Shown here one piece after another: positions 9,291-62,340 of a DNA stretch of 64,000 nucleotides. The stretch is from contig OZ024745.1 in the NCBI GenBank assembly GCA_964016885.1, positions 55,180,001 to 55,244,000 on the forward strand, written 5' to 3'. A model generated the notes under the pieces. It saw only the letters and a program-made list of their open reading frames with translations. It had not been told where the DNA came from and did not search any database. The position numbers were made by a program, and so were the translations under genes. Positions within the stretch are counted from its first letter, which is position 1. Each line of letters opens with the position of its first letter. This DNA comes from Eledone cirrhosa. Taxonomy: Eukaryota.

Positions 9291-10611
9291 TATATATATA
9301 TATATATATATATATATATATATATAAGTTATTCCCGGTTCAATCAGGGATAACCACAGTAAGTAAGGTACACGTGAGAAATCATCAGGAATCACCAGGC
9401 TCAGCTTCATGATGATTTCTCACGAATGAAACAGTTCAGGTCATTTAGAAGCTTTTCTATATTAACATATATGTATTTCTATATGTATATATATATATAT
9501 ATATATATATATATATATGTATATATATATATATATATATATATATATATATATATATATATACATATGTTTTCTCCGGATTTTAAAACACACTTTATTA
9601 TACGTTGAGCAATCTCCGACGTCGGTTGACTCCATCCAATGCAACTACTTAGTAACATTGGAATCCAAATTTACTAATTCTATATATATATATATATATA
9701 TATATATATATATATATATATATATATATATATATATATATATATATATATATATATATATGTATGTATATATATATATATGTATGTATATATATATATA
9801 TATATATATATATATATATATATATATATATATATATATATATATATATATATTGTAATCCACCAGGTTGTGGAAGGGCTGGTAACATTTTTAGGACTCA
9901 ATGTGACTTTGTAAGGATGTGGCTGCAGCGAGATTCGGCATTGTGACTATTAGTTTCTGTTGTAGGCGCTCAACACTTATGGTGTCCTCGAAGAAAATGC
10001 GTCCCGCTTCCAGAATCATTTACATATATGTGTTTGTGCACAGGACAATACAAACAAGTACTGAGACGTAGGTCGACAGTTAGTTCATTGTTTTATGAGC
10101 GTTTCTGAGGGTCAATTGATCGATTGTAGTTGTTAAGTTTCTAAATATTTGTAGTTTCGTGATCCCTTTTTAATCGGCTGTCTTCCTCAGAATCAATAAA
10201 ATGTGATTTTATTTGCTATATATATATATATATATATATATATATATATATATATATATATATATATATATATATATGTATTATGTATATATATATATAT
10301 ATGATCACCAATTCTAATTTATATAATATATATAGCGGCGATGAATTAGTTTAGCTAGGTTTTTTATATGAAATCGTGTGTCGAAACAAATATTGTTATA
10401 CTTGGGGAGGGTCATATTTGTGTAATATTGCCAGAATTAATAACAGAACACACTCACTGTTTGGTTGGTTTTCGCTTCTCGCTGTCTTTTATATCTGCGA
10501 TCTAACTTACTCGGTCCTCAGTGTTGCCATTGACTGACCGACGGTCAAAAATAATACAGTTACAATATAGACACAAACACATATATATAGTTTACATAAT
10601 TTACATAAATC

Positions 10612-10639
10612 TTTCGTTGCACATCTGCAACATCGTCAG
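10612..10639 (-). ncRNA. Hammerhead ribozyme core in PLE-1 left arm
   Basis: CTGACGA-t-gttgca gatg tgcaac-GAAA-gatt-TA; stem I weak. Confidence 0.6.
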
Positions 10640-10913
10640 TGGTGTTATATTTTTTCCTCCTGTTGTGTTGTATGTCTACACCATTTTTTTATTCAGTCTG
10701 TCTATATATTTATTTATTTATTTGCTTGTTTGTTTATTTTATTTTGTCTTCTTTGCGCATGCGTTTGCGTGTGTGTATAGTGTTATGTTTGCTGTGTGAC
10801 TAGTGTGTATAGTGTTGTGTCTGCTGGGTGACTAGTGTGTGTTTATGTGCCTGTTGTTATTGTGCTTGTGTATGTATTTATTTATCTTATTTTATTTTAT
10901 TTTATTTACTTAT

Positions 10914-11360
10914 TTATACTTCTCTTAGGTCAGTGTTGTTTGTTTGGGTGTTGTTGTTGTTCCACTCATTCTTTCTGTTTAGCTTTGGTCTTCTAATTTC
11001 TATTTCACTGGCCTCTCTGATTTGCCTATCTGCTGGGTCATTCCTATGTTTAGATATTATTCTAATTTCTATGTTGTCTATGTTACCGTCATGTTGTTGT
11101 CTAGCATGTTCGTATAGTACTGACCCGTTTTTTCGTCCTTTTAGTTCCCCCCAGGGTTGGTTTATCCTTTCACCTATGCTACGAGCTGTCTCACCTATGT
11201 ATGTTGTTATCATGTTTCTGCAAGTACCCTCTGTACATCTTATGCTATAGACTACGTTTCTAGTTTTACAGTTTATCCGGGGGTTCACCTTACATATGAT
11301 ACATTTCCTATTGGTACAGTGGGTTTTCTTAAAAGGGTAGGTTTTGCTGATCAGGGTTTT
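10914..11360 (-). pseudogene. PLE-1 Cys-rich linker + GIY-YIG endonuclease (left arm)
   Basis: NVVYSIRC...YIGETARSIGERINQ...EH...REASEI...PKLN. Confidence 0.9.
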
Positions 11361-58718: not shown

Positions 58719-60494
58719 ATTGATATAAGTAAGAGATTGCTTAATAAATGAGGAAATTGCATTTCAGAAATGATATTTGTTTAACTTCAATTTCACGAAG
58801 GATATTTAACTGAGAATTTTTCTGTCCATCAAATAATATTTTCTATACATTTATCTGACAACAACCAACTCTATGTTTAATATGATTATCTGAGAATATA
58901 TTGTTAACATCTCTGAAACATTTGATGGAGCAGAAATATGACTATACGTCCTGTAGGAAGTATAAGAATATTGTTTTCTCATCCTGTTTTGCTGTATATG
59001 TATTGTACTCAGATTATTAATACATATCTAGCGTTATAATTTTCACTATGATTTTTATTTGATTGAATGCTCTGTATGTGATTATATTGGTAAATAATTA
59101 TTTAAAAAATGAAAAAGGTATCTAAGGACGAAATTTATTTTCCTTAAAATGTTTAACATAATGTAAGTCGTAATTATAGTTAAATGCAAAATGTTTTAAT
59201 TTTATAATCGATAACTTATGTCGATTCCTCACTTTAAATCCCTGAATTTATAAGGATATGAACTTTCTTATTTCTACTTTACATTTTTACATCTAATAAC
59301 AATTATAAAAAATATATAGATTTCGGCCCTTCTATAGTAGGCCGTCAAATAAATGTCCATACAAATTATTATCTAGACGAACACTCGCAAAATCGTTGTC
59401 GAAATAATACAATGGTTATTATTAACATATGACCTATAATACAGAAAAAATATAGCATTTATTTTATCTTAAGTGTCAAATAGTTTGAAGTAATATAAAG
59501 GGAGAAGCAAATATTCTTTATATTCTACACGTAGAATCAAATTTTCACTGTAATAATGGCTTCCAGTGTTATTCTTCGGTCAGTGAACTACACATCAAAT
59601 TCTCATATGACCTACGCTGTAACAGGGAATTCATATAAACACAAGTAACAAACATATATACATTTAAAAAAGCAAAACAAAATGTTCCATGACGCCTGAA
59701 AAGTTAATGTCTTTTATTGGGTCCAAATAATCTTTTCAAACAAAGTGTATTTTCTGTAAGAGACTTATAGCTCCAAATAAGATTCAATAAAATATCAATA
59801 CAATCGTTTCTGACAGCGAACTGTCACCTTAACAATCTTCCAATTAGAGATGAATGTATACAATTCATAAACGTTGTAACACACTACATCAAAACTTTCG
59901 TTTAGGGAACGACGAAATACTCCGACCTATATAATTGTTATCACATAAAAAAATGTTTTAAGAAATTGTTTCTGGTGAAGTACGACGCGTCGTTTTCAAA
60001 TTAAGTTCAAGTCTTATTAATGCTACATTTATTGATGAGTAATTCTTAGATTTATTTTTAATTTTATATGATAATATTATTCCACGTATATGATTCACAA
60101 TACATATCAAGAATGAGATAGATGTTTACAAAATGGATTAGAACTGTTTACAGGGAGACGTATTTGCAGCAATCAATAGGAATATTTTAAAGTCAAAATA
60201 ATCGGTTTACATACGGTACAATTCCAGCAGCTTCAGTAACTAAAAACAGGCACCAGTCATGCGTAAGCACAAATGTATCTATACATATACAGGTTTTCAA
60301 CAGAAATGTATATATATATTTAATAAAATAACAGATTAAAGTTTAAGCAAAGAATCGCAGCTTTCTAGGGTTCTTATATATTTGATATATATTTATCCTT
60401 ATCAAGCCCTCTTTGGATTTTAGTCTTCAAATTTATTATTATTACTATATATATATATATATATATATATATATATATATATATATATATATAT

Positions 60495-60890
60495 CGCACT
60501 TCCACTCACTCACTCTCTGCTTCTTCCCTTCTTACTTCCTCCCGTTTGGCCTGTAGTGGGGTCTTTTCCTGCTCACACCTCACTCGCGTCGGACGGTCTG
60601 TAGTCTCACGCCCATAAAATCCACACAACTAAAGCTGATCGGACTGCCATGTGCTTGTTTTTTCCTATCTTTGCGTTGCTATCCTTCTATGTTTGTTTAC
60701 TTGTCTCGCTCGCTTTACGCGATTTACTTGTCCCAATAGCTGTATTTAACTATTGCTCGCACCAACTGGAGGTATATGATTTTTAAAGCGATGAAATACC
60801 AATGAAGGTTGGGAAATCACTGATGAAGGACTATTTTTATCATATGTAACCCATGTGCAACCAGGCAGTCTTCTTTCTTCTCATGTTTTA
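60495..60890 (+). mobile_element. Family D copy in (TA)n
   Basis: Homology with 7086-7700 (reverse complement) and 55230-55415. Confidence 0.7.
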
Positions 60891-60916
60891 TATATATATA
60901 TATATATATATACATA

Positions 60917-62340
60917 TAGGAACAAGTATGACCCCGACGACAGAGCTCAAGCCGTTTCGACGGCTATTCCTGCACTAAATAAGAATTTTTAGCCTGGTAA
61001 ATAAATAGCCGAACTTCTCAGGGGGTATTTCCTTATATGGGAAAATAGTAATTGTCAAGAGGACTGGTAAAAAATTTGGTGTAAAGACAGATAAATCTAT
61101 CATGGCATTTGGTGGGAGGTAGGGGTGGTTGAACTTGCAGGTAGAACAAAGAGGGAGTGGGGGAAACCTAGTCAAGCGTTGAAAGTGAAATCTATACAGC
61201 AGATTCTAAGGATAATGTATAAAAGGTTAAAAAAGTGTACTGGAGAAGAGGAGGGTGTGGAGTTGAAAGAATAGGTAAATCGAAAGGGAGCAAAAAAAAA
61301 ACCCATTAAAAGAATAAGGAAATAAATATATAAAAACAATTTCTGGTTACTACTCCATTTCTACAATCACCAAATTTCTCATTGGTATTGCTAAGCTCTA
61401 GAAAAGTTTAATAGGTGCAGAATGGTAAAAATACTAAATACGAGATTGTAGTGAACATTTTTTATAAAGCCGGCTTTACAGGGATCTAACACCACTGCTA
61501 TACATAGTTAGTAATCAGCCAATACTATTTTACAATGACAGGTTAATAAGTTGAGAACGAAAATACTAAAGTACTACTACAGAGATACTAATACAAAATA
61601 TTAATACAAAAATACTATTACAAAAATACTAATTAAAAAATACTATATCCCCCCCCCCCCCATCTGTTCCTAGTCCTTCCACCCCAAATCTCCTTCCTCA
61701 GTCTTTTTTTCACCTTTCGGCTACCCAGATACAGCCTATCGGTCCTCTGTAGCCTCAGTACCCCCTCCTCCCTAATTTTAAGATAGCATTTGCCGATTAC
61801 GCTTTTTATAGCAGATGTGTTTTTGTATTAATATGTTGTATTAGTATCTCTGTAGTAGTCTTTTAGTATTTTCGTTTTTTTTTTACTCCCTTTCGATTTA
61901 CCTATTCTTTCAACCCCCTCCTCTTCTCCAGTACACTTTTTTCGACCTTTTATACATTATCCTTAGAATCTGCTGTATAGATAGATTTCACCTTCAACGC
62001 TTGACTAGGTTTTTACCCACAACCTCTTTGTTCTACCGGCAAGTTCAGCCACCCTTACCTCCCACCAAATGCCATGATAGATTTATCTGTCTTTACAACA
62101 AATTTTTGACCAATCCTCTTAACAATTACTATCTTTCCATATAAGGAAATACCCCCTGAGAAGTTCGGCTATTTATTTACCAGACTAAAAATTCTTATTT
62201 AGTCCAGAAATAGTCGTCAAAACGGCTTGAGCTCTACCGTCGGGGTCATTCTTGTTCCTATTACCCACTCTACTACCCTAAGTATTAGTACTTTGGTGCG
62301 TTATGGTCCATCTGGTTCCTTACCACAATTCCTTAGTTAT
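60917..62340. mobile_element. Family E large palindrome: left arm 60917-61610, right arm 61820-62260 (lacking the equivalent of about 61300-61556), right tail 62261-62340
   Basis: Reverse-complement arms; HHR-like cccc-TGAGAA..cggctatt..aatagccg-tc-GAAA-cggc; (TA)n both sides. Confidence 0.88.

Follow-up and report, generated by a model that had tools for sequence, protein, structure and literature searches.

Eleven pairs of inverted repeats lie within a 64,000-nucleotide stretch of the Eledone cirrhosa genome (contig OZ024745.1, positions 55,180,001 to 55,244,000 of the forward strand; hereafter the window), and they raise the question of whether such palindromes are mobile units in their own right or traces of the insertion of larger elements. 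A first, sequence-only reading had taken them for outward-facing ends of Penelope-like elements (PLEs) tipped with hammerhead ribozymes, and had suggested that they may form a class of non-autonomous, retrozyme-like units. We consider it probable instead that the pairs are head-to-head insertions of ordinary endonuclease-bearing (EN+) PLEs, and that the small palindromes among them (minis) are by-products of short capped transcripts of the pseudo-long terminal repeat (pLTR), rebuilt each time. The observations behind this view are the family identity of the arms, the asymmetry of their tails, fixed starts, an excess of G before the start and the counts of recurrent junctions.

Eleven head-to-head pairs and their families

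All eleven pairs were recovered by self-BLAST where the sequence-only reading had placed them, with arm identities of 77-97%. Most are longer than first described, however, with a tail of 35-90 bp on one arm (for example 10335-10389, 38614-38647, 53035-53122, 54334-54380 and 62262-62340), and the true left start of the pair at 13964 is 13871. The 3' ends point outward, as is evident from open reading frames (ORFs) for 10390-13793 and 48733-53033 and from ORF-bearing relatives for families C, D, E, F and G. A TA run is touched by 18 of the 22 outer ends, the others being 14182, both ends of 37471-38053, and 55210. Two pairs are indeed inverted but had to be redrawn. The pair 47370-54312 is not a 7-kb unit but a short C-type pair split by later insertions, and 37471-38052 is a local inverted duplication round a microsatellite, in which the outer 50-60 bp contain no family sequence (none of 38 other listed matches extends beyond query base 118 of 161). 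The pairs represent the 3' ends of at least seven PLE families with reverse transcriptase (RT) and GIY-YIG endonuclease (EN) ORFs, placed head to head, so that the presence of several families, as first claimed, holds. The features are as follows.

10335..12497, minus strand: long arm of family A (Neptune-type linker), with pieces of a 5'-truncated RT and GIY-YIG ORF and a tail at 10335-10389
12498..13793, plus strand: short arm of family A, with the EN end of the ORF and the 3' untranslated region, tail-free, ending in (TA)40
13544, plus strand: hammerhead core with a 2-bp helix I in the family A short arm
13871..14182: family D mini-palindrome with its centre, the recurrent D junction, near 14074 and a shortened right arm; both hammerhead cores are CCGAAGA (U4C)
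16364..16600: family E (Hydra-type) mini-palindrome with a right-arm tail; G8C in the left core, no cleavage site in the right arm
30878..31069: family F fixed-start mini-palindrome with a left-arm tail; only the GAAA half of the hammerhead in both arms
37471..38053: local inverted duplication with a (TA)n/(CA)n array at its centre; in both arms non-family sequence accompanies a short A2-like 3' piece
38614..39587: family G (Neptune-type) pair; the left arm (38648-39027) has its tail at 38614-38647, and the right arm spans 39028-39587; hammerhead not found
47300..47774, minus strand: tailed left arm of a C-related pair whose right-arm partner is 53916-54312, with later insertions in the centre
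48732..53122: family B (Hydra-type) pair, left arm 48732-50101 (minus), long RT and EN arm to 53034 (plus), tail 53035-53122
53619..53915: B-related copy (minus) with an inverted tail-only arm at 53820-53915 (plus), absent from the earlier list
53916..54312, plus strand: tail-free right-hand partner of the C-related arm at 47300..47774
54334..54662: family C (Hydra-type) mini-palindrome with a left-arm tail; both arms start at the family 5' hot spot
54570..54630, plus strand: the only arm hammerhead to pass the descriptor, with a 7-bp helix I, a long helix II and a short helix III; predicted cut after 54623
54777..55209: family A2 mini-palindrome with a left-arm tail and a degenerate second hammerhead-like motif
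60916..62340: longer family F (Hydra-type) pair with a right-arm tail and the family-wide non-canonical core CTGAGAA; the right arm also lacks G12

In every family tested the PLE ORF lies upstream. A single ORF with RT and, at its C-terminal end, GIY-YIG was found for families A and B in the window and for C, D, E, F and G in relatives. Pfam searches detected GIY-YIG in G and D and, weakly, RVT_1 in A and G, while the frames of family B gave no Pfam match. Families B, C, E and F may be assigned to the Hydra clade by a CxCX5C linker, CxxC and CxH around the conserved E and N, and a (TA)n target; an RWK-like motif (RWR) and DKT were seen in B and E alone. Families A and G, with a CX2-5CxxC linker before the C-terminal GIY-YIG (loci L289 and L177), appear to be Neptune-type PLEs, with Nematis as the alternative. 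Both clade names are based on motifs, those of the Hydra clade as described in PMC8557442. The pLTR with an optional tail of 30-40 bp or longer at one end is also present, and at locus L428 an ORF frame lies about 26 bases past the tail. Words of family A (11710-13785) are shared, at 0.2 or more, with 13 runs from 10 coded organisms, which points to close relatives of this family in other species.

The window is typical of the 3.0-Gb assembly: it contains 19 inverted repeats within 4 kb per 64 kb, as compared to 6-62 per block in eight blind-picked 50-kb blocks. All 24 runs listed consist of contigs; those compared contain family sequence, but none crosses a window junction or the D centre, which is evidence neither way. 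A>G differences in these contigs represent alleles and not editing.

Tails, fixed starts and recurrent junctions

The sequence-only reading had called the inverted form the rule. When the 3' ends of the families were used as queries and the best 40 candidates per search were scored, an inverted partner was present at 92 of 186 sampled loci, that is, at about half (A 16/28, B 13/22, C 15/25, E 15/29, F 15/26, G 5/27, A2 13/29). The window's own copies, second matches at one locus and three of the four copies in a 44-kb tandem duplication were dropped before counting. This figure is lowered by the many negatives with only 1.5 kb of upstream DNA (in family G all 22 negatives) and raised by the two arms that each pair offers to a search. 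The partner at L338 may be unrelated, and the scoring of L024 as tail-free is due to a cut locus. Bait counts in 400 kb of blind-picked DNA were too ambiguous for scoring inversion, because 3' motifs are common to several families, and were discarded. The inverted form was frequent at sizes down to hairpins without protein-coding sequence, as had been claimed. Segmental duplications can mimic recurrent junctions: L215-L218, with identical insertions and flanks, repeat at a 44-kb period, and L071 and L072 lie 400 kb apart.

With tail-free queries, a single tailed arm was seen in 43 of 49 pairs, two in 3 and none in 3 (P=6e-8 against one half), and 11 of 13 A2 pairs likewise had a one-arm tail. 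The simplest reading of one tail per pair is that two cDNAs are primed per insertion. Moreover, among loci with the F junction 7 of the 9 that could be scored, and among D loci 3 of 10, had the tail on the arm that cannot derive from the loop-bearing one; because the copied arm is then tailed and its template tail-free, a single cDNA folding back is not enough. A rule by which the shorter arm always has the tail was rejected, family A being mixed. Purified PLE protein, which is predicted to be dimeric, cuts and extends both strands, and initiates reverse transcription from two sites, one at either limit of the tail (PMC11167929).

The centres of the pairs fall into private and recurrent junctions. 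Those of long pairs are private: in family A all 18 rows differ, 9 of them with overlaps of 2-5 bp. The 5' ends of short arms cluster at reference base 78-80 in family C, at 78-92 in D, and within about 35 bases before the hammerhead in E. The C, D and E samples came partly from palindrome-shaped queries, which select arm length, but the same clusters appeared in 3'-only samples and in incidental F copies. One D junction, at a quasi-palindrome of the parent, occurs in 10 exact copies. One palindromic F junction occurs in 1,615 exact copies; in the 100 listed, both arms match at a variable base, and the 10 loci examined measure 129-202 bp between TA runs. Unique centres throughout had been named as the outcome that would speak against recurring units; identical centre junctions do recur. 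The F junction was found in at least five 3' haplotypes, several of which also have other junction types, so that the recurrent junctions do not seem to form a clade, the haplotypes having been counted at 10 loci of the 1,615. The F hairpin at 30958 in the window starts two bases before this junction point and has a different junction.

Family F has the most sharply defined start: 10,152 arms begin with AGTCC after a non-T base, which in the first 100 listed was G 45, C 47 and A 8. The upstream sequence of one parent is retained in 344 F copies, and about 574 of 3,374 copies of the commonest F 3' haplotype continue upstream (the two search patterns differ slightly), which means that long parents of the commonest mini haplotype exist. 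The parents read TTAGTC or TCAGTC at the start, which we take to fit the initiator consensus, and the shared start base is likely to be the transcript start. The same fixed start lies in loop II of the hammerhead. A ribozyme cut site as the origin of arm starts fits only L002 and L014; in both, a short arm of family A begins no more than 2 bases from the cut site predicted for the second hammerhead-like motif.

The base preceding the start was informative as well. In F copies joined straight to (TA)4 it was G in 25, C in 45 and A in 6, as compared to 6-10 G and 43-54 C expected from target composition; G is thus in excess and C at background. By hand count, a non-native G is present in 16 of 18 family C hot-spot arms, where the stretch separating the two arms frequently reads C-(0-8 bases)-G, and in 12 of 17 family E arms. 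An extra G in full-length L1 insertions marks a copied cap (PMC11702581). The Penelope promoter lies in the pLTR, with its start just upstream of the intron (PMC2377424), and the end of that intron abuts the hammerhead (PMC4209133). The extra G and the position of the pLTR promoter together suggest that the minis are run-off cDNAs of capped pLTR transcripts.

Reaction model and its rivals

In the reaction that we favour, the element protein would nick both strands of the (TA)n target, two cDNAs would be primed, one at the tail end and the other 35-90 bases upstream, and their growing ends would then be joined. Long pairs would represent random 5' truncations joined via 0-5 bp overlaps or short inserts. 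For the minis, the template would be a capped RNA from the pLTR promoter that starts just before or inside the hammerhead, and both cDNAs would run off at a fixed base, which would yield fixed arm lengths, the extra G and few favoured junctions. We infer the double priming, the capped template and the order of joining from the features described above. The presence of RT and C-terminal GIY-YIG in the same families supports this mechanism. The 1,615-fold mirror junction is then probably rebuilt at each insertion. Variants common to both arms of one locus (42/114 sites in D, 30/93 in C, 9/103 in E) fit the copying of both arms from one source per insertion, with conversion between the arms as an alternative.

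Several observations weigh against this reading. The transcript start is placed by inference only. G accounts for 44 of 146 neighbours over all insert-bearing junctions, which is unremarkable, there is no G excess in families D, A and B, and the extra G of family C could be templated by snap-back (L065, L076, L347). Of the F arms counted, 16% belong to the 1,615-copy junction, which recurs without microhomology in the F haplotype with a parental T at −1 (99 of 100 listed). None of the extended loci yielded a full-length copy that begins at a hot spot. Finally, the lack of diagnostic alleles separating minis from long copies in C, D and E (lowest uncorrected P 0.045-0.15) speaks for this reading, but the test is weak, with 10 or 11 long loci per family and short alignments.

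The rival that survives best holds that some minis are self-copying non-autonomous units, in which the RNA starts upstream of the centre, the cDNA ends are complementary across the junction and the centre is regenerated. It would account for the recreation of an initiator-like TCAGTC by the F junction, for the number of exact F copies with their shared arm variant and narrow size range, for the 10 exact D junctions, for the arm-shared variants within D and C loci and for the junction without microhomology in the T(−1) haplotype. However, the F junction is spread over haplotypes that have other junctions too, solo copies have C at −1 no more often than expected from the target, and the centres of C and E vary; we therefore regard such units as improbable. 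In its specific form, namely that the palindrome of about 190 bp in family F is a protein-free mobile unit, whose centre recreates an initiator and whose hairpin a Hydra-clade RT would have rebuilt, from RNA that starts a few bases upstream, in at least 1,615 copies at fresh (TA)n sites, the proposal is doubtful, if worth keeping in mind. If it were true, the F unit would be a palindromic, ribozyme-less element resembling a short interspersed element, its symmetry renewed with each copy, and a large source of double-stranded RNA (dsRNA) with tens of thousands of sister hairpins. The F minis lack half the ribozyme and so would not be retrozymes in any case. A retrozyme-like class, as the sequence-only reading had envisaged it, finds no support: tandem units are absent, minis in C, D and E share no diagnostic alleles, and the F junction occurs in several haplotypes.

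Self-priming, in which one cDNA or an antisense template would fold at a local quasi-palindrome and serve as its own template, is the reading that has been given to junction palindromes before (Arkhipova et al. 2013, PMC3846280). The D and C hot spots do lie at the edges of parental quasi-palindromes, inserts at L065, L076, L105 and L447 are templated, and the second arms at L124, L125, L128 and L131 measure only 3-30 bases. Yet folding back offers no way to put a tail on an arm copied from a tail-free template, nor would it lead one to expect a single tail in each pair. We rate it as very unlikely: as the only mechanism it is contradicted, although it could still act locally where the arms join, or hold if one of two tails is afterwards removed by the endonuclease. 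MITE-like (miniature inverted-repeat transposable element) or foldback DNA transposons and assembly artefacts, to which equal-sized palindromes at many loci and the lack of a junction-spanning contig might point, are highly unlikely, as the arms are 3' ends of RT-encoding elements and differ by 1-20%, the two ends differ by the tail, the junctions carry inserts, and long copies run into upstream RT/EN ORFs, which refutes the MITE reading.

Hammerheads, related systems and neighbouring sequences

Under the double-priming reading the hammerhead appears to be a passenger. An HHR motif had been reported in each arm of most pairs, and hammerhead-derived remnants are indeed present in both arms of 8 of the 11 pairs, but only 1 of the 22 arms (54570-54630) passed even a lenient descriptor. 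Two pairs (30958, 37471) retain the GAAA half alone and one (38648) has no hammerhead-derived sequence. No hammerhead family was among the 123 Rfam matches in the window at E<=1. A strict scan gave three matches, none of them in an arm of the listed pairs and all in B-related copies, at 15266-15461 (plus), 48250-48553 (minus) and 53619-53815 (minus); the lenient scan gave 11, as compared to 7 on the reversed window, so weak matches mean little. The best ribozymes of the window thus lie mostly outside the listed pairs, and a further hammerhead, with a 9-bp helix I and a C-like helix III, is present at about 26220-26295 (minus).

The descriptor was passed by 28 of 29 B relatives, by none of 29 for each A motif, by none of 29 for G and by 1 of 29 for F, and the C and E relatives retain hammerhead cores. 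The B pair in the window has lost G12 of the GAAA box in both arms, a base that is kept in 28 of 29 relatives. In family A the core is complete and helix I measures 2 bp, as in the D. virilis variant, the hammerhead of the family E pair is broken in both arms, G has none, and F and H minis have half a ribozyme. The most numerous minis lack the CUGANGA half. Family F (for example 62155-62245) preserves all three helices as well as the GAAA and GUC boxes, with CTGAGAA as the first box throughout the family; in another F subfamily (L437, L438, L444) this box is TTGATAA, the U3-A8 covariant of Cervera 2014 (PMC4209133). As a working feature, the ribozyme tip of the original description is not supported, most arms being degenerate and the most numerous minis half ribozymes.

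Read-through RNA of the pairs is predicted to form long stems, as proposed (paired fraction 0.67-0.87). A sense ribozyme near its 3' end is not borne out by the model, in which the read-through RNA of the C pair fully pairs the hammerhead to the other arm and forcing the ribozyme fold costs 74 kcal/mol; the hammerhead is therefore predicted not to fold there. PLE hammerheads are weak even as dimers (PMC4209133), and the hammerhead is dispensable for insertion in vitro (PMC11167929).

Much of this picture matches what is in print. Head-to-head is the most frequently observed PLE arrangement, with the tail on one inverted pLTR (PMC3846280), inverted terminal repeats are the commonest form of Penelope in D. 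virilis (PMC2377424), and (TA)n targeting is typical of PLEs (PMC8557442). The present pairs share the head-to-head order, the one-sided tail, the (TA)n target and the pLTR promoter with the EN+ PLE insertions described in these three papers; in comparison with the accessible parts of those accounts, the counts of tail asymmetry, the fixed 5' start with its extra G and a junction in thousands of copies are found only here. With minimal PLE hammerheads the arms have in common a short palindromic helix III, an extra base before helix II and low activity, but most arms are further degenerate, and the F core is CTGAGAA (PMC4209133). Dual hammerhead motifs on opposite strands, 100-700 bp apart, are known from Schistosoma and were ascribed to truncated PLEs (Cervera and de la Pena 2014, PMC4209133).

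Two other systems are instructive. Non-LTR retrozymes (bioRxiv 10.64898/2026.07.22.740005) are likewise non-coding, derived from PLE pLTRs and equipped with a type I hammerhead sequence; however, they consist of direct tandem units, each with a complete ribozyme, whereas inverted pairs with broken or half ribozymes are found here. L1 twin priming (PMC11702581) is similar in that an insertion is primed twice, the inner junction shows microhomology and complete 5' ends bear an extra G. Inverted L1 segments do not overlap, whereas both arms here copy the same 3' end; the exception is the tail-only arms, which resemble ordinary twin priming.

Inverted Penelope copies in Drosophila give rise to dsRNA and to small interfering RNA (siRNA) matching the inverted parts (PMC3681739). 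By analogy, the hairpins of Eledone cirrhosa may feed dsRNA pathways. Head-to-head pLTRs, one-sided tails, pairs of hammerheads on opposite strands and siRNA from inverted Penelope are thus already published; what is new is the fixed F start, together with the extra G and the junction seen 1,615 times, as testable detail of the PLE reaction. A search of the literature, mostly of open papers without supplements (those of Cervera and of Craig may list cases), found no PLE minis with a fixed start or a recurrent junction. The origin of inverted PLE structures was described as still open and named as a next task by Craig et al. 2021 (PMC8557442). Thousands of young insertions in the Eledone cirrhosa genome record this reaction, and exact predictions follow as to where transcripts start and which products form in vitro. 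In annotation, there is a risk that the hairpins are mistaken for MITEs or microRNA precursors, and weak Rfam matches of that kind were seen.

Some further sequences in the window resemble these elements. A GC-rich inverted pair without a TA flank, absent from the earlier list, lies at 23003-23500 (88% identity), and PLE-type RT fragments on the minus strand adjoin it within the region 23003-24365. A GIY-YIG frame at 27547-28101 (minus) resembles the endonucleases of B and F. TA-bounded repeat families, probably PLE ends, were found at 7056-7254, 55231-55417 and 60700-60890 as well as at 6890-6963, 60311-60447 and 62490-62545, and are likewise common in the blind-picked blocks. At 40008-40178, inverted arms of 50 bp round a (TA)n centre resemble the 37471 case and may be a microsatellite fold-back. 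Finally, Helitron-like fragments occupy 40726-42729 on the minus strand, where one frame matches the Pif1 2B domain (E=6e-15).

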